This document shows positions 598-50,097 of a stretch of DNA of 64,000 nt, in pieces. The notes under the pieces are model-generated. The model did no database searches. It saw nothing but the letters and a program-made list of their open reading frames with translations, and was not told the origin of the DNA. Made by a program: the position numbers and the translations under genes. Origin of the DNA: Candidatus Sumerlaeota bacterium (GTDB lineage Bacteria > Sumerlaeota > Sumerlaeia > Sumerlaeales > Sumerlaeaceae); assembly GCA_026398535.1 (NCBI GenBank), contig JAPLSQ010000058.1:34339-98338 (forward strand), read 5' to 3'. Every line of letters starts with the position of its first letter. Position 1 is the stretch's first letter.

Positions 598-669
598 CCG
601 GTCAGCGAGTACGCCATCAGGCCGGTCAGCGAGTACGCCATCAGGCCGGTCAGCGAGTACGCCATCAGG
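598..669 (+). repeat. 24-mer repeat A, three perfect tandem copies
   Basis: CCGGTCAGCGAGTACGCCATCAGG at 598-621, 622-645, 646-669; same 24-mer recurs at 7 other loci in the window. Confidence 0.97.
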
Positions 670-3268: not shown

Positions 3269-4186
3269 TCACCGGTCAGCGAGTACGCCATCAGGCCTGA
3301 GCAGATCCGCGATCTGTTTTTCCGCGGCGGTCATGAGGGTGTTGTGGTCGGCGCCCGCGACGGGCCGCAGCGTGATCATTGTTGGATGACGCCCGGAAAG
3401 CTCCTTTGACATCCGGAAGGGCACGATGTCGTCTGCCGTGCCATGCAGGATGAGCACCGCCGGCGGATCCGCGCGCGAGGCCAGCCCGGCCAACCGCGCG
3501 CGGTTGTCATAGCGGTCGCGCAACAGATTGCACAGCGGCCATCCCACCGACAGCCGAGCCATGTCCAGCAGGCTCGTGAACGGCGCGAGCAGGACGACCT
3601 GCTTCACGGGATGCCCCGCCGCAAAATCCAGTCCCGTGGCCGAGCCAATGGAGAATCCGAGAATGTTGAGGCCGGTTTCGAGCGCGGTGAGCGGACAATG
3701 GAGATGATCCGCGAGCGCGCGGAACGCCGCTTCGGACGACTCGCGGATTGTCCCGCGCCGCGCCGCGCCTTCACATTTTCCGTAACCCGGATAATCCATG
3801 AGCAGATAGCCCGCGCGCGCGCCGCGCGCAGCCTCAACCGTGTCCAGCCAGTCGAGCGCCACCGACGCGTTGCCCGAAAATACCGCCCACAAGCGACCGG
3901 GCGGCTTGTCAGACCCGTCCATTGGAGGTATGTAGAATGCCGTCTGCGCGCCCTGCGATGTCCTGTAATTCAGCTCAACCGTGCCGCGCGGCAGACCGCG
4001 GGCATACGATGGATCGTAGCGCCTGGGAAAATAAATCATTTTCTGCTGAAAGGCGAACGCCATGCACGACATCAGCAAGAAAAATCCGATGATAATTGTC
4101 ACGATCATGCGCAAAAGTCTTTTCAACAAAGGAACAATCGCAAGCCCGAATGCGGGATTTGGCGTCGGGGAAAGATGATTGGTCAT
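3269..4186 (-). CDS. alpha/beta-fold hydrolase with N-terminal membrane anchor
   Basis: GFSIGS nucleophile elbow, LILHGTADDIVP, N-terminal TM helix; last 8 codons (PDGVLADR) are the reverse complement of repeat A at 3272-3295. Confidence 0.7.
   Translation of the reverse strand: MTNHLSPTPNPAFGLAIVPLLKRLLRMIVTIIIGFFLLMSCMAFAFQQKMIYFPRRYDPSYARGLPRGTVELNYRTSQGAQTAFYIPPMDGSDKPPGRLWAVFSGNASVALDWLDTVEAARGARAGYLLMDYPGYGKCEGAARRGTIRESSEAAFRALADHLHCPLTALETGLNILGFSIGSATGLDFAAGHPVKQVVLLAPFTSLLDMARLSVGWPLCNLLRDRYDNRARLAGLASRADPPAVLILHGTADDIVPFRMSKELSGRHPTMITLRPVAGADHNTLMTAAEKQIADLLRPDGVLADR
3272..3295 (+). repeat. 24-mer repeat A, single copy
   Basis: exact CCGGTCAGCGAGTACGCCATCAGG between convergent stops (TAA 3266-3268 on +, TGA 3269-3271 on -). 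Confidence 0.95.
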
Positions 4187-12371: not shown

Positions 12372-13412
12372 ATGAATAAATACGCCAAATCATCAGCTAA
12401 CGCGACCGCCATTTGCCTGACCGCGGGAGTGATCTTTATTGCGGCGCTGGCGCAGGGAACAACCGGCACACTCCATTCCGCGTATAAGGGACAAGGCGAA
12501 GAGCCGACCACAGTCGCCCTGGGGATTTTCGTCCTCGACATTATGCAGATCGACTGCGCCGAGCAAATGTTCACCGCCGACATTTATGTCGAAGCGCACT
12601 GGTATGATCCGCAACTGGCGCATGAGGGCAAGCCGTTGTTCAAACCAATGGACAGCATATGGCACCCGCAACTTCAGGTACTGAACCAGCTCTCGGTGGT
12701 CCGCACGCTGCCCGAGCATCTTCAGATCATGAGCGACGGCCTTGTGATTTTGCGCCAGCGGGTGTTTGGCAATTTCTCCCAGCCGCTGGAATTGCGGTCG
12801 TTTCCGTTCGACCAGCAGGTTCTATCCATCACTTTTATCGCTTCAGGGCTTCTTACTCGTAATGTGCAGATTTTACCTCTCACGGTGGATGGAGTCTCAC
12901 GGACGGCGATCAGCCGCGCATTTTCGCTCCCCGACTGGGATATCACGAATTTTCATTACACGGTGGGCTCGCGCAAGTTCTTTGACGGCAGCGCCAGCAT
13001 GCCCATCATGATAGTCAATATAAACGTTGACCGACGCCAGGGTTACTACATTCTCAAGGTGCTGATCCCCCTTCTGCTGATCGTGTTCATATCATGGATC
13101 ACCTTCTGGCTTGCGCCCGACAATGTCGGCGTGAACATCTCCGTGCCGATGACTTCCATGCTCACGCTTGTGGCTTACCGGTTCACCATCGGGGGGTTGC
13201 TGCCAAGGGTGTCGTATTTCACACGCATGGACGCGTTCATCCTGTCATCAATGTTTCTCGTGTTCGCGGTGCTGGTGTATGTGGTGACCGTGGCGTCGAT
13301 GGTGAAGCATGGCCATGAGGCAAAGGCGTTAAAAATGCGCTGGTGGGGGCGCATGATTTTTCCGCTCTGCATCGTGGTGGTGGTGGTGTGGACGCTGTAT
13401 TTCACCTTCTGA
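12372..13412 (+). CDS. prokaryotic pentameric ligand-gated ion channel (GLIC/ELIC-like)
   Basis: signal/anchor, beta-rich ectodomain with HWYDPQLA and RSFPFDQQ (Cys-loop-equivalent FPFD motif, no Cys pair), then YYILKVLIPLLLIVFISWITFWL (M1) and three more TM helices. Confidence 0.75.
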   Translation: MNKYAKSSANATAICLTAGVIFIAALAQGTTGTLHSAYKGQGEEPTTVALGIFVLDIMQIDCAEQMFTADIYVEAHWYDPQLAHEGKPLFKPMDSIWHPQLQVLNQLSVVRTLPEHLQIMSDGLVILRQRVFGNFSQPLELRSFPFDQQVLSITFIASGLLTRNVQILPLTVDGVSRTAISRAFSLPDWDITNFHYTVGSRKFFDGSASMPIMIVNINVDRRQGYYILKVLIPLLLIVFISWITFWLAPDNVGVNISVPMTSMLTLVAYRFTIGGLLPRVSYFTRMDAFILSSMFLVFAVLVYVVTVASMVKHGHEAKALKMRWWGRMIFPLCIVVVVVWTLYFTF

Positions 13413-15886: not shown

Positions 15887-17184
15887 CCATCGGCACGGAA
15901 TCACGATATGATGTGACCGCCATTGTTCTTGGCGGCGGACGGGGAACACGGCTTTACCCCCTTACGCACTGCCGCTCAAAACCCGCCGTCCCGATTGCGG
16001 GCAAGTATCGCCTTGTCGATGTCGCCATATCGAACTGCATCAATTCGGGCATCCGCCGCATTTTCGTCCTGACGCAGTTCCTCTCCGCGTCGCTCAACCG
16101 CCACATCGCCCAGACCTACCAGTTCGACAAGTTCACCGAAGGATTCGTCGAGGTTCTCGCCGCCGAGCAAACGCACGAAAACGACACATGGTTCCAGGGA
16201 ACCGCCGACGCCGTCAGGCGCAATCTGACTCATGTTCTCGACACCCGCGGCGAGCTTATTTTGGTGATCTCGGGCGACGCGCTCTATCGCATGAACTATC
16301 ACGATGTCATCGCCCAGCATACGGCTGACCGCGCCGACATCACCGTCTGTTGCAAGTTCATCAGCGAGGAAATTGCCCCGTCGTTCGGCATCGTGGGCAT
16401 CGACTCCTCCCGCCGCATCGTCAATTTCCACGAAAAACCGCCGCCGGAAAACCTGCCGCCGCTGCGCCTCGCCCCCGACATGCTCGCCCGTCACGGAAAC
16501 GCCCCCCCCCCCGGAGGAAGCGGCATCAATTCCTTCCTCGCCTCAATGGGCATGTACCTGTTCAACCGCGACGCGCTGCTCGACACTCTGGCCGACAACA
16601 CCAGCGACGATTTCGGAAAAGAGCTTATCCCGCGCTCTATCGCCAGCCGCCGCGTGTTCGCCCACCTTTATGGCGGTTACTGGGAGGACATCGGAACCAT
16701 ACGCAGCTTTTTCTGGGCAAATCTGAACCTGCTCAACGCCAAGCCGGAATTCGATTTCTACGATCCCCAATTTCCCATCTTTACGCGGCCGCGCCTGCTG
16801 CCCTGCGCGCAGATTGACGAATCGGACGTGTTTTGCGCAATGATTGCCGACGGTTGCATGATCCGCCGCGCCAGCCTGAACAATTGCGTCATCGGAATAC
16901 GTTCCATCATCCGCGACGGCGCGCGGATGGAAAACGCCATCGTCATGGGCGCCGATTACTACGAGCGCGAGCGCCCCGCCGAACCCGGCCAGCCGCCCAT
17001 GGGCATCGGGCACGGCGTGGTCATCCGAAACGCCATCATCGACAAAAACGCCCGCATCGGCGATGGCGCGCAGATCGTCAACCACAGCGGAATCGAACAC
17101 GCCGACACCCGCTTGTATTCCGTGCGCGACGGCATTGTCATCATCCCCAAAGGCGCCGTCATTCCTGCCGGAACCGTCATCTGA
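15883..17184 (+). CDS. glgC: glucose-1-phosphate adenylyltransferase
   Basis: AIVLGGGRGTRLYPLTHCRSKPAVPIAGKYRLVDVAISNCINSGI, WFQGTADAV, left-handed beta-helix C-terminus; GTGA overlap with GT4 stop; C11 run (NAPPPGG). Confidence 0.93.
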   Translation: MTIGTESRYDVTAIVLGGGRGTRLYPLTHCRSKPAVPIAGKYRLVDVAISNCINSGIRRIFVLTQFLSASLNRHIAQTYQFDKFTEGFVEVLAAEQTHENDTWFQGTADAVRRNLTHVLDTRGELILVISGDALYRMNYHDVIAQHTADRADITVCCKFISEEIAPSFGIVGIDSSRRIVNFHEKPPPENLPPLRLAPDMLARHGNAPPPGGSGINSFLASMGMYLFNRDALLDTLADNTSDDFGKELIPRSIASRRVFAHLYGGYWEDIGTIRSFFWANLNLLNAKPEFDFYDPQFPIFTRPRLLPCAQIDESDVFCAMIADGCMIRRASLNNCVIGIRSIIRDGARMENAIVMGADYYERERPAEPGQPPMGIGHGVVIRNAIIDKNARIGDGAQIVNHSGIEHADTRLYSVRDGIVIIPKGAVIPAGTVI

Positions 17185-17245
17185 CATGGAGAACACGCCC
17201 CCCCCTGACAAACACGCCCCCCCCTGACAAACACGGAGAAACACG
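17185..17245 (+). repeat. composite repeat filling the whole glgC-lysA spacer
   Basis: CATGGAGAACACG-C8-TGACAAACACG-C8-TGACAAACACGGAGAAACACG, then lysA ATG 17246. Confidence 0.9.
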
Positions 17246-18601
17246 ATGGAACATAATAGAAGAGATTGGGATTGGCATACCTCCCCCTTGGATTTTAACG
17301 GCCTTGACAGCATTGCCGCGAAAGTTGGCACCCCATTCTGGCTATATGACGCAGGGACGCTGAAGCGGCGCATCGGCGCGGTCAAGCGCGTGGCCGCCGA
17401 GGGCGGCGTGATGGCGCGTTACGCGATGAAAGCCTGTTCCGCCACGCGCGTCGTGCGCGAGATGCTCGCCAACGGCATCTGGATCGACGCCGTGTCGGGC
17501 AACGAGGTCGTCCGTGCCATCCGCGCGGGCGCCGCGCCGGGACAATCGCCACCGGTTGTCGTCCTCACGGCTGATGTTTTTCGCGACAACGCCCTCGACG
17601 CGATCATGCAATACGGCATCCTGCCGAACATCGGTTCGCCCGGAATGCTGGACGAACTGGCGCGCGCTGGCTACAAGGGCAACATCGCAATACGCATCAA
17701 TCCCGGTTTCGGCCACGGTCATGTGAACGCCTGCGACACGGGCGGTCCGAGTTCCAAGCACGGCATCTGGTTCAGTCAGGCGGAAGAAATCGCGCGCCAG
17801 GCGGCGCTCCACGCGATGAAGGTCGTCATGTTGCACGCCCACATCGGCAGCGGCCCGCAAATGGAGGAGCTTCTGGCAAATCTGCGGCGCCTGGCAAACG
17901 AGTTTGCGCGAACCGCACCCATCTTTCCCGAACTCGAAGCCTTCAGTTTCGGCGGAGGCATTCCCCATTCCTACCATGAGGAAAACCCCGAAAAAGCCCT
18001 CAACGACGAAATCGCCCCGCTCGGTCCGCTGTTCCACGAGGTTGTGAAGCGTCTTCGCGAGACAACGCGGCGCGAGGTGCGCGTCGAAATCGAACCGGGA
18101 CGTTACTTCGTCGCTCCCTGCGCGAAACTTGTCGCCCGCGTGACCGACATAAAGAAAACCGAACCCCGGTCAGCGAGTACGCCATCAGGCGAGAAAGGCG
18201 GGGGGCAGACATTTATCATGGTGGATGCGGGGTTTGTCGATCTCCTGCGCCCGGCGATGTACGGCTCCTACCACAGGATTTCCACGTACGGCCCCAGCAA
18301 ATCCGGCCCCCCCCCTGGCGCGCGCCCCGTGGTTGTGGCCGGACCGCTGTGCGAATCCGGCGATGTGTTCACACGCGACGCTTCCGATTTTATCGCGCCC
18401 CGCGATCTGCCGCTTCCCGCCAAGGGCGATCTGCTCGTCATCCACGACGCCGGCGCCTATGGTTACGCCATGAGCTCAAATTACAACTCCGTCGGCCGCG
18501 CCCCGCAGGTTTGGATCGGCGAGGATGGCGCGGCCGCGCTCATCTCCCGCCGCGAAACCGTGGACGACATCCTGCGGCTGGAGACCGAAACAACGCTGTA
18601 A
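17246..18601 (+). CDS. lysA: diaminopimelate decarboxylase
   Basis: YAMKACS (PLP-Lys), GFGHGH, FGGGIP, EPGRY, MVDAGFVDLLRPAMYGSYH, CESGD; carries in-frame copy of repeat A. Confidence 0.93.
   Translation: MEHNRRDWDWHTSPLDFNGLDSIAAKVGTPFWLYDAGTLKRRIGAVKRVAAEGGVMARYAMKACSATRVVREMLANGIWIDAVSGNEVVRAIRAGAAPGQSPPVVVLTADVFRDNALDAIMQYGILPNIGSPGMLDELARAGYKGNIAIRINPGFGHGHVNACDTGGPSSKHGIWFSQAEEIARQAALHAMKVVMLHAHIGSGPQMEELLANLRRLANEFARTAPIFPELEAFSFGGGIPHSYHEENPEKALNDEIAPLGPLFHEVVKRLRETTRREVRVEIEPGRYFVAPCAKLVARVTDIKKTEPRSASTPSGEKGGGQTFIMVDAGFVDLLRPAMYGSYHRISTYGPSKSGPPPGARPVVVAGPLCESGDVFTRDASDFIAPRDLPLPAKGDLLVIHDAGAYGYAMSSNYNSVGRAPQVWIGEDGAAALISRRETVDDILRLETETTL
18166..18189 (+). repeat. 24-mer repeat A inside lysA (frame 2: RSASTPSG)
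   Basis: exact 24-mer; position verified by codon counting from 17246 (R308 codon at 18167). Confidence 0.95.
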
Positions 18602-18612
18602 TTCCCTGCCAG

Positions 18613-18677
18613 CCCCCCCCCGAAAGAACCATACGGAGAACACGGAGAACACGGAGAACACGGAGAACACGGAGAAC
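18613..18677 (+). repeat. C9 run plus 5 x 9-mer ACGGAGAAC
   Basis: C9 at 18613-18621; ACGGAGAAC x5 at 18633-18677, directly abutting recX ATG 18678. Confidence 0.95.
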
Positions 18678-19313: not shown

Positions 19314-19345
19314 AAGTTGTGGCGCAGGCGGCCCGGACCCGCATG

Positions 19346-19436
19346 CCGGAGAACACGGACAAACATGGACAAATACGGACAAACACGGAAACCGGTCAGC
19401 GAGTACGCCATCAGGCGGAGAATGGCAGGCATCATG
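19346..19436 (+). repeat. decamers + repeat A + ATGGCAGGCATCATG module
   Basis: CCGGAGAACACGGACAAACATGGACAAATACGGACAAACACGGAAA, A at 19392-19415, then CGGAGA-ATGGCAGGCATCATG (19422-19436; same 15-mer at 35520-35534). Confidence 0.92.
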
Positions 19437-20303
19437 ATAATTGCGCAAATCGCGGCTGGTTGCGCGGCTTCGTCCCCCCCCGCATCCGCGACGCCGCCAT
19501 TGATCGTCGCCCACAGAGGTTCCTCCCACAGCGCGCCCGAGAACACTCTGCCGGCTTACGCGCTCGCGTGGAAACAGAACGCCGACGCGGGGGAGTGCGA
19601 CATTTATATGAGCCGCGACGGGCGGATCATGGTGATTCACGATGGCGACACTTCCAGGACGGCGGGCGCCGCGCTGAAGGTCAAGGATACCGAGTCGGCG
19701 CGGCTTCGCCAGCTTGATGCCGGGAGATGGAAGGACGCGAAGTACGCCGGAACGCAAATCCCGTTCCTTGAGGAGATCATCGCCGGTCTTCCCGTCGGGA
19801 AGAGGCTCTTCGTGGAGATCAAATGCGGCCGCGAGGCGTTGCCGGCGTTGCGCGATGTGATTGCCGCGAGCGGCAAGACGCCGCACCCCCCCCTGATCAC
19901 GCTGATCGGGTTTGAACTCGGCACGATTGTGGAAGCCAAGGCCATGATGCCCGCCCTCCCCGCATACTGGCTGCGCGGCACGGTGATGCGCTCCGGGAAC
20001 GGCAAAAAAATTCCCCAGCCGCACGACCCCGCATGGGCGGTCACAGCGAAATCAAGGGGACTGGACGGACTGGATGTGCATTACGAGGGACTGACGCCGG
20101 AATTCGCTGCGGCGGTGAAGGCCGCCGGATTGGGGCTTCACGCCTGGACGGTTGATGACGCCGCCGAGGCGCAACGGCTCATGCGGCTTGGCGTGGACAG
20201 CATCACGACAAACCGCCCGGATTTCATCCGCGAGGCGCTGGGCGGGCGGGACGCCCGCGCTCCCAGGACAACCACGGACAACCAACCGGGGCATAACCAA
20301 TAA
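19422..20303 (+). CDS. glycerophosphodiester phosphodiesterase (secreted)
   Basis: signal-like MAGIMIIAQIAAGCAAS; IVAHRGSSHSAPENT, ECDIYMSRDGRIMVIHD, HAWTVDD; last about 20 codons are repeat-derived. Confidence 0.85.
   Translation: MAGIMIIAQIAAGCAASSPPASATPPLIVAHRGSSHSAPENTLPAYALAWKQNADAGECDIYMSRDGRIMVIHDGDTSRTAGAALKVKDTESARLRQLDAGRWKDAKYAGTQIPFLEEIIAGLPVGKRLFVEIKCGREALPALRDVIAASGKTPHPPLITLIGFELGTIVEAKAMMPALPAYWLRGTVMRSGNGKKIPQPHDPAWAVTAKSRGLDGLDVHYEGLTPEFAAAVKAAGLGLHAWTVDDAAEAQRLMRLGVDSITTNRPDFIREALGGRDARAPRTTTDNQPGHNQ
20231..20285 (+). repeat. 40-nt hairpin module plus degenerate decamers
   Basis: CGAGGCGCTGGGCGGGCGGGACGCCCGCGCTCCCAGGACAA (38/40 identical to 24031-24070; GCGGGCG-GGA-CGCCCGC stem-loop), then CCACGGACAACCAAC. 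Confidence 0.9.
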
Positions 20304-20387: not shown

Positions 20388-21815
20388 ATGCAGGACTCGA
20401 TCCAGTTTGAACCCGATTTCACACCGGGCGCCAAGATAAAGGTTGTGGGTGTCGGCGGCGGCGGCACGAACGCCGTTGACAGCATGGTGGAATCGGGGCT
20501 GAAGGGTGTGGATTTTTTTGTGATCAACACGGACGCGCTGGCGCTGTCGCGCAGCAAGGCTCAGACGAAGATTCAGATCGGCCAGAACATCACGCACGGG
20601 CGCGGTTCGGGCGCCGATCCGGCCATTGGCGAACAGGCCGCGGTCGAAGCCAAGGATGTCATCCAGGAGAATCTTAAAGGCGCGGACATGATTTTCATCA
20701 CGGCGGGTCTGGGCGGAGGCACAGGCACGGGCGCGGCGCCCGTCATCGCCGAAATTGCCAGGGACATGGGCATTCTGACCGTGGCCGTCGTCACGCGCCC
20801 CTTCCGGTTCGAGGGCCCCCAACGCATGAACAAGGCCAACCAGGGGCTCGACCGTCTGCGCCAGTTTGTCGACACCTGCATCATCGTTTCCAATGACCGT
20901 CTCATCGAGGTCGTCGGCCCAAAGACCCCGCTCAAGGAAGCTTTCAGTGTGGCCAACAACGTGCTGACGATGGGTGTGCAGAGCATCAACGACCTGATCA
21001 GTGTTCCCGGTCTGATCAACGTGGATTTTGCCGACGTCCGCACGATCATGAACGAAACCGGCGGCGCCGTGATGGGCGTGGGCGTGGGCAAGGGCGAGAA
21101 CCGCGCCACCGAGGCCGTGAAAAAGGCATGCGCCAGCCCGTTGCTGGACAAAATTGTCATCGACGGAGCGCGCGGCGTGCTGATCTGCGTGACAGGGGGC
21201 GAGGACATGACCCTCAACGAGATCAACGAGGCGACGACCATGGTATACGAGGCCGCCTCGCCCGACGCGAATATCATTTTTGGCGCGGTGGTTGACGAAA
21301 AGCTCAAGGACGAAATCCGCGTCACAATCATCGCCACAGGCTTGGAGGACAAGCATCTGCGCACCGGCGCGCCCATCCCCGACGACTCGCGCATGGGTAT
21401 CGGCCCGGGGCCGAGCAAGGAAAGAATCGAGTCGATGTTCACGCCGGCCACGGAGCGCCGTTCATCGGCCGCCGCGAAAACGGCGGAGGCGGTTGCGGCA
21501 AAGAAGGAAAGCGCCGTTGCCGCCGCATCGGATGCCGCGCACAATGTCGCGGCCGCCGCGCCAAAATCCGACGAGCACGTCAATTCGTTCGATTTCAAAC
21601 GACCCGACAACCCGTTGCGCTCGAGTTCAGCGTTCGCCGCGGCCACGGAAACCGGTCAGCGAGTACGCCATCAGGCGGACGAACACGGACAAACACGGAC
21701 AAACACGGAGAACACGGCTGACAAACTCGAGGAGAAATCCGCCGCGGGCGAACTGCGCGAGGACGATCCCGACATCCCCGCATTCCTAAAACGGCGCAAG
21801 AACCTGTTCGAGTAG
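20388..21815 (+). CDS. ftsZ: cell division GTPase FtsZ
   Basis: IKVVGVGGGGTNAV, GGGTGTGAAPVIA, NDRL, VDFADV; C-terminal peptide DIPAFLKRR; AGGAG RBS upstream; linker carries repeat A plus decamers. Confidence 0.97.
   Translation: MQDSIQFEPDFTPGAKIKVVGVGGGGTNAVDSMVESGLKGVDFFVINTDALALSRSKAQTKIQIGQNITHGRGSGADPAIGEQAAVEAKDVIQENLKGADMIFITAGLGGGTGTGAAPVIAEIARDMGILTVAVVTRPFRFEGPQRMNKANQGLDRLRQFVDTCIIVSNDRLIEVVGPKTPLKEAFSVANNVLTMGVQSINDLISVPGLINVDFADVRTIMNETGGAVMGVGVGKGENRATEAVKKACASPLLDKIVIDGARGVLICVTGGEDMTLNEINEATTMVYEAASPDANIIFGAVVDEKLKDEIRVTIIATGLEDKHLRTGAPIPDDSRMGIGPGPSKERIESMFTPATERRSSAAAKTAEAVAAKKESAVAAASDAAHNVAAAAPKSDEHVNSFDFKRPDNPLRSSSAFAAATETGQRVRHQADEHGQTRTNTENTADKLEEKSAAGELREDDPDIPAFLKRRKNLFE
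21644..21716 (+). repeat. CACGGAAA + repeat A + 4 decamers inside ftsZ linker
   Basis: A at 21652-21675 (frame 3: GQRVRHQA, verified by codon count G423 at 21654), then CGGACGAACACGGACAAACACGGACAAACACGGAGAACACGG. Confidence 0.95.
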
Positions 21816-21830
21816 CGCGCGCCATCATCC

Positions 21831-21856
21831 GCGGACAACCGTGGACAACCAATAAA
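21831..21856 (+). repeat. degenerate decamers
   Basis: GCGGACAACCGTGGACAACCAATAAA, compare 20272-20303. Confidence 0.6.
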
Positions 21857-21870: not shown

Positions 21871-22599
21871 TTGCGATTGCTTGACCTGACACTTCCGGCT
21901 CCAGCGGAGAATCTCGCGCTGGAGGAGGCGTTGCTGGAGGAGACGGAAGCGGGGCAGGGCGGTGAAACGTTGCGGTTCTGGGAGAGCGGCGTCTTCTTCG
22001 TTGTGATGGGCGCGGGTTGCCATGCCAGCGCCGACGCAAACCTTGAGCGCTGTGCCGCGGACGGCATTGCCGTGCTGCGCCGGTGCAGCGGGGGCGGAAC
22101 CGTCCTGCAGGGGCCGGGATGCCTGAACTGCGCGCTCATTCTTGACGCGCGCGCGCGCCGCGAGCTGTCGTCAATCGCTGAAACGAACACGCATGTTCTC
22201 GGGCGTCTTGCGCGCGCGCTGGAATCCGTATGCCCCGGCTTGCGCCGTGAGGGCATCAGCGACCTGGCGGTGGATGGAATGAAAATATCGGGCAGCGCCC
22301 AGAAGCGCAAACGCCGCTTTATCCTGTTTCACGCCACGCTCCCGCATGATTTCGATCCTGCGCTTGTGGCGCTCTATCTGCGCGAGCCGGCGCGCCAGCC
22401 GGAGTATCGCGCGGCGCGCCCCCACGCCCGATTCATGCGCAACATCAGCGCGCCGCCCGTCCGCCTGAAAGAACTTATCACCGCCGAGTGGGACGCCTCG
22501 GCCCCCCCCCCCAAGACGCCGTGCGCGCCGCCGCTCGAGCGCATGCGCGGACTCGTTGATTCCAAATACGCGCGCGACGCGTGGAACCTCATGTTCTGA
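21871..22599 (+). CDS. lipoate-protein ligase / octanoyltransferase family protein
   Basis: LRFWESGVFFVVMG, LRRCSGGGTVLQGPGCLNCALIL, KISGSAQKRKRR (catalytic-Lys context) typical of BPL_LplA_LipB domain; TTG start. Confidence 0.65.
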   Translation: MRLLDLTLPAPAENLALEEALLEETEAGQGGETLRFWESGVFFVVMGAGCHASADANLERCAADGIAVLRRCSGGGTVLQGPGCLNCALILDARARRELSSIAETNTHVLGRLARALESVCPGLRREGISDLAVDGMKISGSAQKRKRRFILFHATLPHDFDPALVALYLREPARQPEYRAARPHARFMRNISAPPVRLKELITAEWDASAPPPKTPCAPPLERMRGLVDSKYARDAWNLMF

Positions 22600-24016: not shown

Positions 24017-24030
24017 GTCAAAATTCCCCA

Positions 24031-24131
24031 CGGGGCGTTGGGCGGGCGGGACGCCCGCGCTCCCAGGACAAACACGGACAAACACGGACAACCACGGACA
24101 ACCAAGGACACGGATGAAATACCCGCACCAA
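24031..24131 (+). repeat. hairpin module + decamers + 33-nt ATG module
   Basis: CGGGGCGTTGGGCGGGCGGGACGCCCGCGCTCCCAGGACAA, ACACGGACAA x2, CCACGGACAA, then CAACCAAGGACACGGATGAAATACCCGCACCAA (24099-24131), identical to 45042-45074. Confidence 0.93.
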
Positions 24132-33288: not shown

Positions 33289-33337
33289 GACATGGAGAAC
33301 ACGGACAAGCACGGACAAACACGGACAAACACGATGG
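33289..33337 (+). repeat. decamer block between two - strand genes
   Basis: GACATGGAGAACACGGACAAGCACGGACAAACACGGACAAACACGATGG; + orientation although both neighbours are on the - strand. Confidence 0.93.
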
Positions 33338-33339: not shown

Positions 33340-34308
33340 TTAATTACCCGCGGCGATGAGTTCCGAGACAGTGACGAAACGATATCCCTGGCCTCCGAGA
33401 ACGTCGATGATCCGGCCGGTGGCTTCGAGCGATGTCTGGAAGCGGTCGTGCATCAGGATGATTGAGCCGTCGCGCGCTTCCTTAAGAACGGTGTTGACGA
33501 TCTGATCCGTTGTGCGTCTGCGCCAATCGTTGGTGTCGACATCCCACAGGATGATCTTGAGGCCCATGGTCTCGCAGATGTCGCGCACGCGCGTGTTCCA
33601 TGATCCATAAGGCGGCCGGATGACCCTCGTCCGCTCGCTTGATATGGATGTGATCAGATCGTTGCAGCCGTCCATCTCGCGGCGGATGCCGTCTTCACCC
33701 AGCTTTGTAAACTGTTTGTGTGTGACGCCGTGATTGCCGAGTTCGAATCCGCTGCCGGCGCGTGCAAGCTCCCCGGCCGCGGAGGGATATGCGCGGATCG
33801 ATTCGCCCAGCAGGAAAAACGTGGCGTGCGCGTTTTTCTGGCGGAGCAGACGGACAAGTTTTGGTGTGATGGCGGAATTGGGGCCGTCGTCATAGGTCAG
33901 CGCGAGCAGTTTTTTCCCGGTGGGCCAGTTTGAGATCGGTCGCGGGCCGGTCGTCACGCCAGCGCCGGCTTTCATCCTGGATGATTTGACGGCGGTCTGG
34001 CTTTTGGCTGTCGTTTTGTTTTGGGTGGCGGATTTGCTGGCAACTGTTTTGGCGGGTCGGACGCCTGCAACTGCGGATGTGCTTTTGGCGGATTGATTCT
34101 CGTTTGATGACCGGGCCGCGGCGGGTTTCGCGCCCCCCCCCGCAGGCGCGCGCCTGAACCATTGGAAACGCGGCTTTGGCGTGGGCGTGGCGGCGGCGGG
34201 ATATTGCTGTGGCCACAAGCCCCCCCCCGGCGCGGCAACCGCGCAAAAGAGACAAATTAATATTTTATAATGGCGCATGAACTGCTTTATATGAGTACAA
34301 CGGCGCAT
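33340..34308 (-). CDS. polysaccharide deacetylase (NodB homology domain), secreted
   Basis: LALTYDDGPNS, LGNHGVTH, SIILMHD; signal-like MRHYKILICLFCAVAA (alternative start 34278); two C9 runs on + strand encode GGG. Confidence 0.85.
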   Translation of the reverse strand: MRRCTHIKQFMRHYKILICLFCAVAAPGGGLWPQQYPAAATPTPKPRFQWFRRAPAGGGAKPAAARSSNENQSAKSTSAVAGVRPAKTVASKSATQNKTTAKSQTAVKSSRMKAGAGVTTGPRPISNWPTGKKLLALTYDDGPNSAITPKLVRLLRQKNAHATFFLLGESIRAYPSAAGELARAGSGFELGNHGVTHKQFTKLGEDGIRREMDGCNDLITSISSERTRVIRPPYGSWNTRVRDICETMGLKIILWDVDTNDWRRRTTDQIVNTVLKEARDGSIILMHDRFQTSLEATGRIIDVLGGQGYRFVTVSELIAAGN

Positions 34309-34949: not shown

Positions 34950-37248
34950 GATGAATCCCAAACCCGCGCGCGCCGCGACAATAACGGCGCTTGTCATTTA
35001 TGCGGTTGCGGTGCTGTTCGTGCTTGCATGGGCGCAGACACCCATTCTCGCGCCGTCAAACATCAACCGCACACAAGCTGCGCTCGAACCCCTGCGCTCG
35101 GTCAGCGATTCGGTTTTTATGTTCAGTCAGGGGGGGCTCATGTCCAACAACAACATGCCCTGGCGCGCTCTCGGCATTTTTGCGCTGTGGTTGTGCGCGC
35201 TCAGTTCGCTGGGCATTGGTGTGTCGCGCGGCATTTTCCCGGCAGGGCTTCTGTGGGAGGAACGCCTGCTCTTCGGTTTCGGCGCCGGATACATCATCAC
35301 CGGGCTTGCCGTGCTGTTTGCCGGTCTGGCTGGTTATGCCACACCCGACTCCGCCGCGCTCATCATTCTGCTTGCGCTGCTTGCGGGGCTTTGGCTCTGC
35401 AGACGCCAGATCGCCGGCATCCTGCGGCGGCGTCCGCCACCCCACACGGACAACCACGGAGAACACGGAGAACACGGACAAGCACGGACAAACACAGACA
35501 AACACGGAGAACACGGAGCATGGCAGGCATCATGGCGCGCTCCGCCCCCCCCCCGGCCGGACAACTGGCGGGTTGCCACGCGGATACTCCTTTTTTTCCT
35601 GTGCGCATTTATGGCCGCCGGATTTCTTTACGCCATGACCCCGCCCATTCAGTCCGACGCGATGCGTTATCATCTTGCGGCGCCCCAGGAGTGGCTCAAA
35701 ACGGGGCGCATCACTTTGTTGCCGCTTAACGCCTTCAGCAATTTCCCTTTTTTGCCCAACATGCATTATATGATTGCTCTGGCATGGGATGGGCCAGAAG
35801 CGTCGCAGATGATGCACTTCGCCATGCTGGCGCTTGTTACCGCGGGACTGTGCGGCTTCGTGCGCCGTTTCGTCGAGCCGCTTTATGGTTCGCCGCCTCC
35901 GCGCTCCGCCCCTTTCATCCGGCTTGTTGTCGCAACCATGTATGCCGGGGTTCCCGCGGTGTTCATTGTGGCGTCATGGCCGTTTGTGGACCAGATGTTC
36001 GTGTTTTTCGTCTTTGCGTCGCTTTACTCCATGCTTCTGGCATTGCGGAGCGGGTCACTGGCGGCTTATGTGTTCACCGGTGTGATGATGGGCGGGGCGC
36101 TTGGCTCGAAATACACGGCGCTTATTTTTTTCGGTGTTCTCATGGCGCTTGCCCTGATTGAGCTTTTCGTTGTCCGCCCCCCCCCCGACGCCTGGCGCGC
36201 TGGCGGCGCGCCGCCGCTAATGGCTCGCGCGCGCCGCTTCGCCGTGTTCGTTTTTGTTGCCGTCCTTGTCGGGTCTCCATGGTTCATAAAGAATGTCGTT
36301 TTGACCGGCAATCCCGTTTATCCTTTTGCCAACCAGCTTTTCGGCGGCGGCGACTGGTCAGGGGCCAATGCCAGGCTCTATGAAAGCAAGATGCGCGAAA
36401 AAGGTGAGACGCCCGCGCTGACGGCGTTTTTCAGATCGCCGGTCAAGGCAACCTTTGAGTGGACGCGTTATGAAGGGCAATATCCAGGCGGGGCGCTGGC
36501 GGGCGCGCTCATTGCCGCCGCCGCCGCCGTTGTCATGCTCATTCTGCGGTACCCCCCCCGTGAAAAACGCGCCGGGGCGCTCTATTACACTGCCGCCGCC
36601 GCCGCGCTCTACTATGCCTCATGGTTTGTGAGTTATCAGAGCAACCGCATGCTGGCGCCGTTTTTTGTGATGGCGCTGCCGCTGGCCGCCGTGTTTTTTC
36701 ATGAGTGCCGCATCCTGTCGCGCGGCGCTCTGGCTCTGGCGCTGGCCGTGGCATTGCTGTGCGCCGCCCACGGCATGTTATGGGCGCTCCAGTGGGAATA
36801 CCTGCGCGCCGTGCCGCCCTCCATGTCCTACTTCAACGGTTCGATGTCGCGCGACGAGTATCTTGTGCGCGGACTGAACTTCCGCCAAGCCTATCTTTAT
36901 CTCAACGAGCGTGTCAAACCGGATGAAAGGGTGCTGCTGATTGGCGAGCATCGCATCTACGGGGCGCAGTTCAACGCGATCTGGAGCGACTGGTTCGACA
37001 CGCCCGCCGTGCTCCACATCATGCGCGCCAACAGCATCTCCAGCCCGGCGGCGCTTGAGGGCGCCCTCAGGCTCGCGGGCGTGCGATGGATCCTCGTCAA
37101 TGAAACGGAGATCGCGCCTCAGAACGAATTGTACTGGAGACCGCGATTCACGGCCGAAGAATGGAAACTGCTGCAGACATTCCTGGAAATCCAGTCGCGC
37201 AACCGCATCAACATCCCTCCGGGCGTGTCGGTGATCAGGCTCCCCTGA
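34933..37248 (+). CDS. polytopic GT-C-like (family 39/83-like) glycosyltransferase; possibly two genes fused through a repeat
   Basis: 771-aa ORF, more than 12 hydrophobic helices; residues 171-207 are repeat-encoded; segment after the repeat (TM helix then IQSDAMRYHL loop) looks like a canonical GT-C N-terminus. Confidence 0.45.
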   Translation: MAEDHEMNPKPARAATITALVIYAVAVLFVLAWAQTPILAPSNINRTQAALEPLRSVSDSVFMFSQGGLMSNNNMPWRALGIFALWLCALSSLGIGVSRGIFPAGLLWEERLLFGFGAGYIITGLAVLFAGLAGYATPDSAALIILLALLAGLWLCRRQIAGILRRRPPPHTDNHGEHGEHGQARTNTDKHGEHGAWQASWRAPPPPRPDNWRVATRILLFFLCAFMAAGFLYAMTPPIQSDAMRYHLAAPQEWLKTGRITLLPLNAFSNFPFLPNMHYMIALAWDGPEASQMMHFAMLALVTAGLCGFVRRFVEPLYGSPPPRSAPFIRLVVATMYAGVPAVFIVASWPFVDQMFVFFVFASLYSMLLALRSGSLAAYVFTGVMMGGALGSKYTALIFFGVLMALALIELFVVRPPPDAWRAGGAPPLMARARRFAVFVFVAVLVGSPWFIKNVVLTGNPVYPFANQLFGGGDWSGANARLYESKMREKGETPALTAFFRSPVKATFEWTRYEGQYPGGALAGALIAAAAAVVMLILRYPPREKRAGALYYTAAAAALYYASWFVSYQSNRMLAPFFVMALPLAAVFFHECRILSRGALALALAVALLCAAHGMLWALQWEYLRAVPPSMSYFNGSMSRDEYLVRGLNFRQAYLYLNERVKPDERVLLIGEHRIYGAQFNAIWSDWFDTPAVLHIMRANSISSPAALEGALRLAGVRWILVNETEIAPQNELYWRPRFTAEEWKLLQTFLEIQSRNRINIPPGVSVIRLP
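35443..35554 (+). repeat. decamers + ATGGCAGGCATCATG + C10 run inside GT-C-like ORF
   Basis: CACACGGACAACCACGGAGAACACGGAGAACACGGACAAGCACGGACAAACACAGACAAACACGGAGAACACGGAGC; ATGGCAGGCATCATG 35520-35534; C10 35545-35554 (codon-verified). Confidence 0.93.
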
Positions 37249-38820: not shown

Positions 38821-40208
38821 GCCAGCCAATGACACCCGCACAACTTCCGCCGCTGAAGAAGCGCGTCGAGTCCGTCGACGCTTTTCGCGGCTTCACGATC
38901 TTTGCCATGATTTTCGTGATCATGGTTGCCGGATACCGCAACCTGCCGCTGACCTTTCCGCATTTTGGCAGCGCGCCGGTGTCGACCTTCAAACACGCCA
39001 GCGAGGACGCCGCCCCCCCCCTACCGCGTGAATGGGCCTTCTGGCAGGGGCTCAAAACATCGGACCCCCCCCTTATTTATTATGCCGGCAAGCTTCTGGC
39101 CTGCGACACAAACTCAAGCTGCACGGTGGCGGTGCTTGGCGACAAGGACACGACGCTGGCCGTGGTGAGCGGGGCGCGCATCCGCGCCGCCAAGCCGCTC
39201 CGGCCCGGCGAGGAGGTGATCGCTCGGTCGCTCGCTCCGGCCCCGCCGCGATCCGGCGTCATGGGCGAACCGGTCAGCGAGTACGCCATCAGGCCGGACA
39301 GCTTCACCATGCAGGGAACCGGCAACGGATGCACATTCTGCGATCTTGTGGCGCCGTTTTTCGTGTTCATTGTCGGCGTGTGCATCCCGCTCAGCAAGCG
39401 CAAGCGCGGCGCCGAATGGTGGCGTCATGTGGGTTTCCGCACTCTCAGCCTCATCCTCGCCGGCGTCCTTTACATTTCGCTCATCCTCAAGCTTTCGTGG
39501 TGGTGGGGCATTTTGCAGGCCATCGGCGCGGCTTATTTCATGGGCGCGGTGGCGATGTTCCTGCCCGTCTGGGGGCGCTGGACAGCGATTGCTGTCATTG
39601 CGGCATTTCACGCATGGATGTCGTGGCATGTTCCTTGGTGGCTGGAGCTGGGCGACAAGACGCGCCCGTTCTTCACGATCGCCAACCTTCACGGCGACCC
39701 GCTTCGCCCCCTCACCGTGCATTGCACGCCCTGGGCGTCGATCTCATGGGGAATCATCGCCATCGCGGGCACGCTCATCGGCGACGCCGTCGCCGGCCGT
39801 GAACCGCGCGCCATCATCCGCCAGTGCCTTGTTGTCGGCGTCATCCTCACCGCCGCTGGCTGGCTGCTTCATATCTATCAGGCGCCGATGAACAAGGACT
39901 ATGTCTCGCCCGCCTATTCCGTGTTCACATCGGGGTTGGGCGCGCTGTGCTACCTCGTGTTTTACCTGCTCATTGACGCGGCGGGCCTGAAACTGTGGGC
40001 GTGGCCGTTCACCGTGTTCGGCGCGAACGCGCTGCTGGCGTATTTCATGCAGCCCGTTGTGCGCATCTTCTTCCAGGCGCTGGGACTGTACCCCTTCTTC
40101 ACCTCGCACGCCGGCTGGAACGGCGTGCTGTGGGGGCTGATCTGGACAACCTGCCTGTGGGTCGTTGTGCTTTGGTGCAACAAAAAAAACATCTATTGGA
40201 AATTATGA
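38817..40208 (+). CDS. DUF5009/DUF1624 acyltransferase-family membrane protein (heparan-alpha-glucosaminide N-acetyltransferase-like)
   Basis: RVESVDAFRGFTIFAMIFV N-terminal motif, about 10 TM helices; long first loop carries two C8-9 runs and repeat A. Confidence 0.6.
   Translation: MSQPMTPAQLPPLKKRVESVDAFRGFTIFAMIFVIMVAGYRNLPLTFPHFGSAPVSTFKHASEDAAPPLPREWAFWQGLKTSDPPLIYYAGKLLACDTNSSCTVAVLGDKDTTLAVVSGARIRAAKPLRPGEEVIARSLAPAPPRSGVMGEPVSEYAIRPDSFTMQGTGNGCTFCDLVAPFFVFIVGVCIPLSKRKRGAEWWRHVGFRTLSLILAGVLYISLILKLSWWWGILQAIGAAYFMGAVAMFLPVWGRWTAIAVIAAFHAWMSWHVPWWLELGDKTRPFFTIANLHGDPLRPLTVHCTPWASISWGIIAIAGTLIGDAVAGREPRAIIRQCLVVGVILTAAGWLLHIYQAPMNKDYVSPAYSVFTSGLGALCYLVFYLLIDAAGLKLWAWPFTVFGANALLAYFMQPVVRIFFQALGLYPFFTSHAGWNGVLWGLIWTTCLWVVVLWCNKKNIYWKL
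39270..39293 (+). repeat. 24-mer repeat A inside CDS (frame 1: PVSEYAIR)
   Basis: exact 24-mer; P152 codon at 39270 by codon count. Confidence 0.95.
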
Positions 40209-40376
40209 CAATATCGTCATTCCGCGCGATCAACAAGCCCCCCCCTGATTATTTAGATGCGGGAGAGATGCCCGCGATCCGATGCTCCGCCCCCCCCCCC
40301 CCGAAAATAAGCGCGCCTCCCGCCAATTTACACGGGCTTGCGCTGTATCAGGTTCATCAACGGCGCCGCGTCGCCC

Positions 40377-42479: not shown

Positions 42480-43391
42480 ATGGCGGTTGTCGTGGTCTGT
42501 CTCGGAACGGAGAACCACGGACCCCCCCCTGAACCACGGACAACCACGGACATATCGGGTGTCAGGTTTGCGGTGACCAACTCGTGGCTGGAATGCTGTC
42601 TGCGCGATATCGCCGGCCCCCCCCCGCCTGACGCGGATGTGGCGCGTCTTTGTCCGCCGGGCTCGTGTCCGGGCCATTTTGACATAAAACCGGGCGACGC
42701 GGCTGTGCTTATGAAATGCCAGGCGCTGTTCCGGTTCGATTTTCAGAAATCTCTCGACGCCAGGATACAAGGTCTGCGCACCGAGGGTCCCGCAATCATA
42801 TCCATTCCTGCCCCCGATGGGCTGTGCATCCCGGATCGCTACCTTGAATCTTGCGAGTCAATTCATGATGAACTGGCAAGACTGGAACCCGGCAGGCGTG
42901 CGGTTTTCGATGCCGCGCTGACAGCCACACGCGCGCGGCTCTCGAGCCTGTCCGCGCAGGCGCATGCCACGATTGCGGATGCGCGGTTACCGGGCGTGCG
43001 CGTTGTTGTGTCGGGGCGCCAAGCCGCTTTCTGCCGATGGCTCGGATTGGACACGGTGAGCGCCTATTCCGGCGGGGAGGCCGCGTCGCCCGCGCAACTG
43101 CGGGCGCTTGTAGAGAAAGGGCGTGATGCCAGGGTGCGTTTCGTCATCACGAACCTGCAGGAGGGCCGGCAGATGGGCGAGGCGCTTGCCTATCATCTCG
43201 GCGCCCAAGTGGTCGTGTTCAGCAACTTCCCGGACATGACGAGTTCCCAGAACAGCTTCGACGCCCTGGTAAACATGAACATTCAGGCGCTGATCTCGGC
43301 CGCGGGCGCCATCAGGCACGGAAACCGGTCAGCGAGTACGCCATCAGGCGGACAAACACGGACAAACACGGACAGGCACGGAGAACCATGA
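42480..43391 (+). CDS. TroA/ZnuA-like metal ABC transporter substrate-binding protein (atypical, Cys-rich)
   Basis: VRFAVTNSWLECCLRDIAG...LCPPGSCPGHFDIKPGD...FRFDFQ follows the ZnuA pattern (v.tt..l.d....G...l...g.dpH.ye.p.d); start uncertain (see findings); 3' end repeat-encoded. Confidence 0.55.
   Translation: MAVVVVCLGTENHGPPPEPRTTTDISGVRFAVTNSWLECCLRDIAGPPPPDADVARLCPPGSCPGHFDIKPGDAAVLMKCQALFRFDFQKSLDARIQGLRTEGPAIISIPAPDGLCIPDRYLESCESIHDELARLEPGRRAVFDAALTATRARLSSLSAQAHATIADARLPGVRVVVSGRQAAFCRWLGLDTVSAYSGGEAASPAQLRALVEKGRDARVRFVITNLQEGRQMGEALAYHLGAQVVVFSNFPDMTSSQNSFDALVNMNIQALISAAGAIRHGNRSASTPSGGQTRTNTDRHGEP
42506..42551 (+). repeat. decamers with embedded C8-TGA module
   Basis: AACGGAGAACCACGGA-C8-TGAACCACGGACAACCACGGACA. 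Confidence 0.88.
43308..43387 (+). repeat. A 3' fragment + CACGGAAA + repeat A + decamers
   Basis: GCCATCAGG CACGGAAA, A at 43325-43348 (frame 2: RSASTPSG), CGGACAAACACGGACAAACACGGACAGGCACGGAGAACC, then ATGA. Confidence 0.95.
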
Positions 43392-44200: not shown

Positions 44201-45060
44201 TGTTTCTCTGGCAGGCGGCGGCCGTCCTTGCCGGTTCTTCCACCGGGTTGCTCGGTGTCTATGTCGTCGGATTCCGGATGCCCTTCCTTGGCATCGCGAT
44301 GGCGCATGCCGCGATGGCCGGGGCCGTTCTGGCATGTCTGCTGGGGTTGCCTGTCGGCCCGCTGGCGCTCCTGTTCGCGTTGCTGGCCGCGGCGGTCATG
44401 GCATGGCTTGTCACGACGCATTTACGCGCCGATCTCAACACGGTGACAAGCATCCTGCTTTCGCTCACGATGGGGCTCGCGTTTCTTGGCATCGGTCTGA
44501 ACAAGGGCGATATGACGCCGCTGCTTGGCCTGATGTGGGGCAGCCTGCTTTTTGTGCGGCCGGCGGATGTCTGGATCATGCTGGCGATGATGGCTGCGCT
44601 CGTTCTGTTCGTGACGATGCTGGGCAAGGAGATGGACGCCATGCTGTTCAGCCGCAACATCGCACGCGCCTGCGGCGTCAACGACCGGCTCGTGCTTGTC
44701 CTGTTCCTGGTGCTTGCCGCGGTGATCATCACGGTGAACCTTCAGATTGTGGGCGGACTGCTCATGTACAGCCTGCTCACGAATCCTGCCGCGGCCGCGT
44801 TCGAAATTGGGCGCGGCATGCGCGCGGTGCGGTTTCTGGCCGCCTCGGCCGGCGCGCTCGGCGCTGTTGGCGGTTTCTGGCTGTCCTATCCCCTGAACCT
44901 GCCCACCGGCGCCTGCATCGTTATTGTGAGCGCATTGCTCTACGCCGTCGCATTGGCGGCCGGACAACCACGGAGAACACGGACAAGCACGGACAAGCAC
45001 GGACGAACGAAGACCGGTCAGCGAGTACGCCATCAGGCGGACAACCAAGGACACGGATGA
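44197..45060 (+). CDS. metal ABC transporter permease (ABC-3 / ZnuB-like)
   Basis: 8-9 TM helices, GLLGVYVV...FLGIAMAHAAMAGA typical of ABC-3; ATGA overlap with ATPase; last about 33 codons repeat-encoded. Confidence 0.85.
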   Translation: MMFLWQAAAVLAGSSTGLLGVYVVGFRMPFLGIAMAHAAMAGAVLACLLGLPVGPLALLFALLAAAVMAWLVTTHLRADLNTVTSILLSLTMGLAFLGIGLNKGDMTPLLGLMWGSLLFVRPADVWIMLAMMAALVLFVTMLGKEMDAMLFSRNIARACGVNDRLVLVLFLVLAAVIITVNLQIVGGLLMYSLLTNPAAAAFEIGRGMRAVRFLAASAGALGAVGGFWLSYPLNLPTGACIVIVSALLYAVALAAGQPRRTRTSTDKHGRTKTGQRVRHQADNQGHG

Positions 45061-45074
45061 AATACCCGCACCAA
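44961..45074 (+). repeat. decamers + repeat A + 33-nt ATG module
   Basis: CGGACAACCACGGAGAACACGGACAAGCACGGACAAGCACGGACGAACGAAGA, A at 45014-45037 (frame 3), CGGA, CAACCAAGGACACGGATGAAATACCCGCACCAA (45042-45074). Confidence 0.95.
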
Positions 45075-49401: not shown

Positions 49402-49453
49402 CCGCTGGTAATGGATGTGCGCGATCCCGGATTTCGCGTGTTCGTTTTATAAA

Positions 49454-49490
49454 AATTATCACGCAAAGACGCAAAGAACGCCAAGGAAGA
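49454..49490 (+). repeat. 37-bp direct repeat, left copy, flanking GxxExxY gene
   Basis: AATTATCACGCAAAGACGCAAAGAACGCCAAGGAAGA; 36/37 identical to 50002-50038. Confidence 0.93.
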
Positions 49491-49561
49491 CAAAAAAGCA
49501 AGGCGAGAGAAAAACAATATGTTTTCCATGGCACGTTACACGGACACAAAGGACGCCAAGC

Positions 49562-49951
49562 ATGACAGAGAACGAAATTGGCAGAATCGTGGTGGACGCC
49601 GCACTCGCTGTTCATCGTGAGCTTGGACCGGGTCTTCTGGAGACTGTATACGAAGTCGTGCTGGCACAAGAATTGTCAGACCGCGGACTGAAGGCCGAAC
49701 GCCAATTACCTGTTTCCATCACTTGCCGGGGAATCACGTTTGATGTGGGATTCCGGGCCGACATCATCGTCGAGGACAAGGTGATCCTGGAATTGAAGTC
49801 TGTCGAAAAAATCACCCCAGCACACAAGAAGCAACTGCTCACATACCTGAAGCTTACAGACACGAAGCTGGGATTCCTGTTAAACTTCGGCGAAGCCTTG
49901 ATAAAAGATGGCATCAGCCGGATGGTCAACGGCCTCGACGAGAGCAGATGA
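49562..49951 (+). CDS. GxxExxY protein (PD-(D/E)XK nuclease superfamily)
   Basis: GPGLLETVY (G-x-x-E-x-x-Y), ADIIVEDKVILELK (D...E.K), about 129 aa. Confidence 0.88.
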   Translation: MTENEIGRIVVDAALAVHRELGPGLLETVYEVVLAQELSDRGLKAERQLPVSITCRGITFDVGFRADIIVEDKVILELKSVEKITPAHKKQLLTYLKLTDTKLGFLLNFGEALIKDGISRMVNGLDESR

Positions 49952-50001
49952 TTCTTGGCGGGCTTGGCGGCTTGGCGAGAGAATGTTTTGGTTGGATTAT
50001 G

Positions 50002-50038: not shown

Positions 50039-50097
50039 AAACAAATTTTGCAATCTGCTTGACCTCCGGCGTTAACAAGATTCGTGTGATAGGCACT

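Follow-up and report, generated by a model that had tools for sequence, protein, structure and literature searches.

The 64,000-nt window analysed here (contig JAPLSQ010000058.1 of assembly GCA_026398535.1) comes from an uncultured freshwater lake bacterium of the Candidatus Sumerlaeota, and it holds a copy of a short dispersed repeat, in frame, in the C-terminal linker of its ftsZ gene. Genes were identified by sequence, through a search of 5.8 billion proteins and through Pfam. The ftsZ gene is one continuous open reading frame (ORF) of 475 codons plus stop, and the best named matches of its product are FtsZ proteins from Candidatus Sumerlaeaceae and Sumerlaeia metagenome-assembled genomes (MAGs), at ~66% identity. 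Pfam places a Tubulin domain at residues 16-176 (PF00091, E=9.6e-49) and an FtsZ_C domain at residues 225-320 (PF12327, E=1.5e-34). The core ends in RVTIIATGLED (residues 311-321), and the long linker that comes next runs through FDFKRPDNPLR (401-411), SSSAFAAA, TETGQRVRHQADEHGQTRTNTENT (420-443) and ADKLEEKSAAGELR to the terminal EDDPDIPAFLKRRKNLFE (458-475). The coordinates of all features are collected in Table 1.

The repeat in this linker has two parts. The first, which we call repeat A, is a 24-nt core, CCGGTCAGCGAGTACGCCATCAGG, present at 21652-21675 as an exact copy of the consensus. It runs directly into 42 nt of T-free decamers of the ACGGACAAAC family (4.2 units, 21676-21717), so that core and array amount to 66 nt (24+42), or 22 codons, and to 72 nt with the left partial unit CACGGAA. 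The encoded peptide, TGQRVRHQA-DEHGQTRTNTENT, stands between FDFKRPDNPLR and an intact C-terminal peptide, DIPAFLKRRKNLFE; GQRVRHQA is read from 21654-21677 and DEHGQTRTNTENT from 21678-21716. A preliminary description of the locus had placed repeat A and four decamers, in frame, at 21644-21716. The translation and the exact core bear out the in-frame placement, and the boundaries agree with a 70-nt composite, found by a repeat-family search of the window, that is common to 21644-21713 (the reference copy) and 43317-43386 with 96% identity. Decamers are present as described, but the array is not made of four whole units, reading instead CGGACGAACA CGGACAAACA CGGACAAACA CGGAGAACA CGG (10+10+10+9+3 nt). 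The same description had the C-terminal peptide DIPAFLKRR kept in frame behind the repeat, and both translation and alignment confirm this. The gene is transcribed in two lake metatranscriptomes, whose contigs cover ftsZ only up to 21571; translation of the insert would follow from the continuity of the ORF and the conserved C-terminus.

The insert among relatives, strains and sister copies

We compared the host protein with 37 related FtsZ proteins, about 54-80% identical, and aligned it with 20 of them in MAFFT. From NPLR to the C-terminal (T/I)P, the spacer in the 37 relatives measures 27-46 residues, with a median of 37. The host spacer of 51 residues is the longest of all and falls to 29 when the 22 inserted residues are subtracted. 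A gap lies opposite GQRVRHQADEHGQ in 20/20 aligned relatives. This gap and the outlying spacer length support the earlier proposal that the peptide is an insertion. The insert peptide is absent from all 37 related FtsZ proteins, and in two relatives the surroundings of ftsZ (21 and 16 kb) are free of decamer arrays. On the near side of the insert, residues F403, N408, P409, L410 and R411 of the mid-linker motif are invariant across the 21 aligned sequences; on the far side, after the variable linker, the tether peptide DIPAFLKRRKNLFE aligns with ETPAFLRRRKNLFE of the 20 relatives. An AlphaFold model built from the 21-sequence alignment shows residues 316-464 as coil at a pLDDT (predicted local distance difference test) of 33-51, rising slightly at just two places, the conserved motif and the terminal helix; being poor overall (mean pLDDT 54), it counts as weak support only.

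The insert recurs in a second, independently assembled MAG. Contig JBAXHV010000010.1 of GCA_037138735.1 is 99.65% identical over 21.4 kb and carries the ftsZ insert base for base; the same 321-nt region has two single-nucleotide polymorphisms (SNPs), both outside the insert. Strain SNPs flank the insert on both sides (21517, 21748 and 21788), and the second strain's SNP set is also seen in contigs of two further metagenomes. In Logan contigs from five DNA metagenomes, unitigs reach from either flank into the repeat, and these contigs contain no form that skips 21644-21716. The number of units in the ftsZ linker is identical in the two strains and constant in contigs of the five metagenomes, and the decamer arrays within the 21 kb common to both strains all keep their unit number. 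No other, insert-free ftsZ copy was found in the protein database or in the five metagenomes: the database holds no second FtsZ closer than ~80% over the core or 67% over the full length, and the closest other matches carry other organisms' names or lie on unrelated contigs.

The ftsZ copy belongs to an abundant family. Where chance predicts 0.00 matches in the window for a 28-mer around repeat A and 3.85 for the decamer, 10 and 45 are observed. All 10 repeat A cores (three in tandem at 598-669, the others at 3272, 18166, 19392, 21652, 39270, 43325 and 45014) are identical whatever frame they occupy, and the sequence is therefore not maintained at the protein level. In Logan contigs the summed depth of repeat A is ~30-200x that of the flanks, which puts the family on the order of 10^2 copies in the sampled communities. 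It is also dynamic, since the tandem at 598-669 has three units here and two in GCA_037138735.1; a contig from the Joint Genome Institute (JGI) has four.

Every one of these units points the same way. In the window, 10/10 repeat A units and 18/18 decamer arrays lie on the + strand, and the contig beyond both window ends adds one more repeat A unit and two arrays in the same orientation. As counted over ~78 kb, 12 repeat A loci and 20 decamer arrays share a single orientation. The majority of the window's genes are also on the + strand, but three loci (3272, 24066-24110 and 33299-33331) are flanked only by minus-strand genes. Homopolymers are polarised as well, with 25 C runs of >=8 nt on the + strand and no G runs of that length. 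We rejected an orientation tied only to transcription because of these three loci and the 25-to-0 excess of poly-C over poly-G. An origin or terminus of replication was rejected as the cause of the orientation on other grounds: GC skew changes sign near 48 kb, from negative (1 to ~48 kb) to positive (~48 to 64 kb), with gene and repeat orientation unchanged, and the array beyond 64 kb stays on the + strand. Given the minus-strand-flanked loci and the poly-C polarity, the orientation seems to belong to the DNA strand or replichore, and not to each gene's transcript, in this one 78-kb segment. The poly-C tracts lie between 15649 and 63600 (for example at 16502-16512, 17198-17224, 18613-18621, 22502-22512, 36177-36186 and 40290-40302). 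Several fall within ORFs and are read as poly-Pro, or as poly-Gly if the ORF is on the minus strand (34133-34228, for example). Of the three indels that separate the two strains, two touch such tracts.

Tolerance of the insert and competing explanations

The composition of the repeat makes it safe to translate. The repeat A core is exactly eight codons long and free of stops in all three sense frames, which read GQRVRHQA, PVSEYAIR or RSASTPSG; one antisense frame has TGA. The decamers lack T and thus have no stop codon in any frame on either strand, and their sense strand encodes only K, N, T, R, S, Q, H, P, E, D, A and G, all polar or small. In the sense orientation the element, core and decamers alike, therefore never truncates a protein and never adds a hydrophobic segment. 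Because 10 is not a multiple of three, three decamers (30 nt) give the identical decapeptide TDKHGQTRTN from every entry frame. The frame is kept in ftsZ because the total of 66 nt is a multiple of three. The C-terminal linker (CTL) of FtsZ, for its part, is hypervariable in length and composition (PMC9586301). The preliminary description had attributed survival of the insert to disorder of the linker; this fits the CTL literature and the weak coil prediction, but the element's own design explains survival at least as well.

We consider it probable, at roughly 80%, that the insert is a passenger which belongs to a miniature, orientation-specific repeat system, is harmless by its site and its composition, and is translated as 22 extra polar residues. 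The process that scattered repeat A and the decamer arrays in a single orientation would have placed a copy in ftsZ, or the copy may have arrived by gene conversion from a sister array such as 43317-43386. Its persistence would then reflect the stop-free eight-codon unit, the T-free decamers and the frame-independent peptide, together with a host site in a hypervariable, disordered spacer whose length after insertion is slightly above the clade range. The expected outcome would be an FtsZ that keeps its core, mid-linker motif and C-terminal peptide on a polar tether longer by 22 residues.

Several points weigh against this reading. No empty-site allele exists among known sequences, nothing lies between the 99.65% strain and relatives at ~80% core or ~67% full-length identity, and we infer the insertion event and its boundaries. 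No words that span the ftsZ insert occur in the RNA runs. Charge patterning of the CTL matters (PMC9586301), the neutrality of any polar insert is an assumption, and the AlphaFold model of the linker is of poor quality. Finally, an exact match to the consensus in a fast-evolving linker could mean selection at the nucleotide level, and hence function.

Such a function is the premise of the alternative that survives best, in which the insert was co-opted and kept, for example to tune linker length or charge to cell geometry or for a role in the ftsZ mRNA. The ftsZ copy is the exact consensus and shows no strain difference within it, though three SNPs lie nearby. Elsewhere in the window arrays abut eight start codons (17246 to 45058), and decamers directly before start codons, with their GGAG/GGAC motifs, may bind ribosomes or an RNA-binding protein; sequence features of the CTL also affect function in B. 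subtilis (PMC9586301). However, the ftsZ array has no in-frame start codon after it, the decamer strand is predicted to be unstructured and there is no match to an Rfam family. Relatives do without the insert, and a shared protein-level role is at odds with units that occur in three frames, between genes and in antisense position. We regard co-option as unlikely.

It is far less probable that ftsZ is the source of the repeat, or a chance look-alike, and not its recipient. Linkers are polar and of low complexity, and similar peptides could arise by chance; against this, the exact 24-nt core and the 96% match of the 70-nt composite are at the DNA level, the family has on the order of 10^2 copies, and the peptide is missing from every one of the 37 relatives. 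We give equally little credence to a contingency locus, in which the decamer tract would act as a slippage-prone switch that varies the FtsZ C-terminus. Its tandem 10-nt units are not multiples of three, and the number of tandem repeat A units does differ between strains at 598-669, but unit number is constant at ftsZ itself and in the decamer arrays of the common 21 kb, and a one-unit slip would remove an essential tether peptide. Least credible of all is an assembly artefact, in which the assembler collapsed or mis-joined repeats into ftsZ: Logan unitigs do break at the repeat and no single short contig bridges both flanks, but two independent MAGs that differ by SNPs have the same bases throughout the insert, unitigs lead from each flank into the repeat in two metagenomes, and a random mis-join rarely keeps both the frame and a conserved C-terminal peptide.

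Other identities were considered for the insert and dropped, among them a CRISPR array (there are no spacers), a tRNA or tmRNA (transfer-messenger RNA) fragment, and a sequencing adaptor or spike-in, the insert being internal, in frame and present in two MAGs. Rfam 15 returned no matches at gathering thresholds and only two unrelated sub-threshold ones at E<=1. The repeat A 24-mer has 0 matches in GTDB species genomes and occurs in only three short contigs of the JGI metagenomes. Phage records gave no match and plasmid records only chance-level ones; the decamer dimer has 0 matches in IMG/VR viral contigs, and a literal sequence search of ~8.3 million papers found no match. Among the annotated genes over ~78 kb there is no transposase (including Y1 and RAYT-like enzymes) and no reverse transcriptase.

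Other copies and repeats in the window

Table 1. Features of the ftsZ locus and further copies of the repeat in the window
Feature	Coordinates	Strand	Basis
ftsZ coding sequence	20388..21815	+	ORF, Pfam, database matches
FtsZ globular core (Tubulin GTPase + FtsZ_C)	20433..21347	+	Pfam
FtsZ C-terminal linker, aa 322-457, predicted coil, low confidence	21351..21758	+	alignment, AlphaFold model, PMC9586301
Mid-linker motif FDFKRPDNPLR, clade-conserved	21588..21620	+	alignment
Left partial decamer unit CACGGAAA; also in sister copies at 19384 and 43317	21644..21651	+	
Repeat A core, 8 codons; with flanks encodes (T)GQRVRHQ(A)	21652..21675	+	
T-free decamer array, encodes DEHGQTRTNTENT	21676..21717	+	
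Conserved C-terminal peptide EDDPDIPAFLKRRKNLFE, in frame 3' of the insert	21759..21812	+	alignment, translation
Short array resembling the decamers, CCGCGGACAA x2.2, in the intergenic spacer 3' of ftsZ	21829..21850	+	
Three tandem repeat A units, intergenic spacer	598..669	+	
Repeat A where two genes converge; lies antisense to the final 8 codons of minus-strand hydrolase ORF 3269-4186	3272..3295	+	
Repeat A inside lysA, different frame, RSASTPSG	18166..18189	+	
Decamer array then repeat A, 5' leader of the GDPD gene directly upstream of ftsZ	19344..19418	+	
Repeat A in putative ORF 38817-40208, third frame, PVSEYAIR	39270..39293	+	
Sister composite (partial unit + repeat A + decamers), C-terminal tail of ZnuA-like ORF; abuts start codon (GGAGAACC then ATG)	43317..43386	+	
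Repeat A after decamer array, C-terminal tail of ABC-3 permease ORF, GQRVRHQA frame	45014..45037	+	

FtsZ is not the only protein that the repeat appears to have entered. Compared with E. coli LysA (1KNW), the host LysA has a 13-residue insertion, TEPRSASTPSGEK, between the strand ending in VK and the FxxVDAG motif; judging from the sequence, repeat A is here read in another frame, within a surface loop of a folded enzyme. A copy just upstream of the window lies in frame (PVSEYAIR) behind the signal-peptide-like N-terminus of a 1474-residue protein. Arrays or repeat A also build the C-terminal tails of three ORFs, encoding a CNNM/CorC protein (GDEHGEHGEHGEHGQTRTNTDKHREP), a ZnuA-like protein (NRSASTPSGGQTRTNTDRHGEP) and an ABC-3 permease (TSTDKHGRTKTGQRVRHQADNQGHG), in each case up to the stop codon.

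Eight ATG start codons (17246, 18678, 19424, 37282, 38817, 40418, 43388 and 45058) directly follow the last base of a decamer array, which closes with either GGAGAACC or AACACG. This arrangement suggests that such arrays may serve as, or grow out of, unstructured 5' leaders that bear Shine-Dalgarno sequences. A second junction recurs where repeat A is embedded in an array: CACGGAA/ACCGG...CAGG/CGGAC is identical at three copies (19391, 21651 and 43324) and similar at 45013, and the remaining repeat A copies have neither decamer flanks nor the CGGA junction. As a lead, one possible reading of the array-embedded junction is that 26 nt were inserted into a single decamer unit, with duplication of the 4 nt CGGA. 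In a metatranscriptome contig, a repeat A copy is preceded by a tRNA-like sequence, GCGCAACTGGTAGCGC, so at least one other repeat A locus is transcribed.

Further dispersed units accompany the family, all on the + strand. A 37-nt unit is found at 24095-24131 and 45038-45074, where its ATG starts the methyltransferase gene at 45058. The module ATGATATTCACCACAGAGA occurs at 28780 and at 43388, the latter being the start of an ABC ATPase gene. A 57-nt unit at 20228-20284 and 24028-24084 consists of a GC-rich palindrome and then decamers, and its first copy lies at the 3' end of the gene just upstream of ftsZ. A PD-(D/E)XK_3 nuclease gene (49415-49951, in the region 49415-50045) is associated with T-poor 44-nt direct repeats at 49454-49497 and 50002-50045 that are 93% identical and carry ACGCAAAG octamers; on its sequence, the gene looks like a small cassette inserted into a repeat-bearing leader. 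Two hybrid histidine-kinase genes contain a 300-nt direct repeat of 97% identity (53042-53341 and 58198-58497), in which a PAS segment has probably been duplicated, or copied by gene conversion, in recent time. Elsewhere in the window, gene 12372-13412, with its Neur_chan_LBD and Neur_chan_memb domains, is a putative prokaryotic pentameric ligand-gated ion channel homologue.

Relation to known systems and to decamers in other phyla

On our comparison, the system most resembles the small dispersed repeats (SDR) and short tandemly repeated repetitive (STRR) sequences of cyanobacteria in size and, at part of its loci, in nesting, and appears to work like the Rickettsia palindromic elements (RPEs) while differing from them in size and in lacking the palindrome. 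Elhai and colleagues in 2008 (Genome Res 18:1484, reference 43 of PMC3116915) reportedly described cyanobacterial SDRs of 21-27 nt nested in STRR heptamers. Like these, repeat A is a very small unit (24 nt) with no encoded enzyme that at several loci sits within short-unit tandem arrays, in genes as well as in spacers, and that varies in copy number or presence between strains. The host, however, is Sumerlaeota-like and not of the Nostocales, and the arrays are of decamers and not heptamers; the comparison made here is one of descriptions. We know of no description of strict single orientation, or of FtsZ or LysA insertions, for SDR/STRR, nor of any dispersed repeat inside an FtsZ linker.

Other systems are more distant. 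Repetitive extragenic palindromes (REP) and REPINs resemble it in being short (20-40 nt), present in many copies and specific to a lineage, with a copy number that varies. They differ in being imperfect palindromes, mostly extragenic, often in inverted pairs and mobilised by RAYT, whereas 0/32 loci here are inverted and only a weak hairpin is predicted; as DNA, repeat A folds at -5.2 kcal/mol (z=-1.57, range -1.3 to -1.6) and the decamers at 0 kcal/mol. Contingency loci share tandem short units in coding sequence with a unit length that is not a multiple of three, but the ftsZ locus has no unit-number variation and lies in an essential gene, not in a surface or restriction gene. RPEs, which lie in frame in housekeeping genes, are regarded as selfish DNA that coding sequence tolerates (review PMC10969869). 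In both systems the elements are dispersed and non-autonomous and lie in frame inside unrelated housekeeping genes, with a peptide that fits the fold; the in-frame insertions here are in the FtsZ linker, the LysA loop and the N-terminus of the 1474-residue protein. RPEs, however, are ~100-150 bp long and palindromic and encode one conserved peptide, whereas the present system combines a 24-nt unit with 10-nt arrays (~70 nt as a composite), is non-palindromic, is read in three frames and is one-stranded over 78 kb.

Decamers of this kind are also met far outside this lineage. GTDB species genomes contain 54 stretches with the exact dimer ACGGACAAACACGGACAAAC, against ~1 expected by chance, and these are spread over at least 15 phyla of bacteria and archaea; its hosts include Hydrogenedentota, Acidobacteriota, Nitrospirota, Planctomycetota, Verrucomicrobiota (including Akkermansia), Spirochaetota, Bacteroidota, Chlorobiota, Gammaproteobacteria and archaea. 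A control dimer of the same composition (AGCAACACGA x2) has 15 loci, which are themselves related CACGAA-type arrays, so the contrast of 54 with 15 is only indicative. Where the dimer lies deep inside credible genes, it is in the sense orientation and in frame in 4/4 cases, adding ~27 nt or ~9 residues (HGQTRTNTD). These four hosts are two nonribosomal peptide synthetase genes, a Prevotellaceae Memo-AMMECR1 fusion and a loop of archaeal ABCE1. Among Prevotella relatives (79-100% identical), the linker has two alleles, one long and containing decamer DNA, the other short (GEEKT); no clean empty site was found among these relatives. A second decamer family, with a CACGAA core (for example in Pyrinomonadaceae contigs), builds periodic hairpins in which a short loop separates an array from an inverted one; the same layout is seen for some of the CACGGAC arrays of Spirochaetaceae, Akkermansia and Acidobacteriota.

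A more speculative extension, which we think possible but on balance doubtful, is that repeat A and the CACGGAC-type arrays are the footprint of a strand-specific "nano-element" process that writes stop-free, frame-indifferent polar cassettes, and that acts beyond this lineage. If so, a cross-domain mechanism able to reshape the loops and linkers of essential proteins would count the FtsZ insert among its products.

The repeat is a clean example of composition rules that make DNA safe to insert into coding sequence: it has no T in its decamers, a unit of eight codons in its core, and the same decamer peptide in every frame. FtsZ is essential and, as far as the data show, single-copy, so a fixed repeat in its linker is a natural experiment on linker tolerance. 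This genome, an unusually dense and strictly polarised carrier of such repeats, is a good system in which to look for the mechanism behind very small dispersed repeats, a question that goes back to the description of the cyanobacterial STRR and SDR sequences. If that mechanism also underlies the decamer insertions of other phyla, the linkers and loops of prokaryotic proteins would have a general source of variation that has been overlooked.

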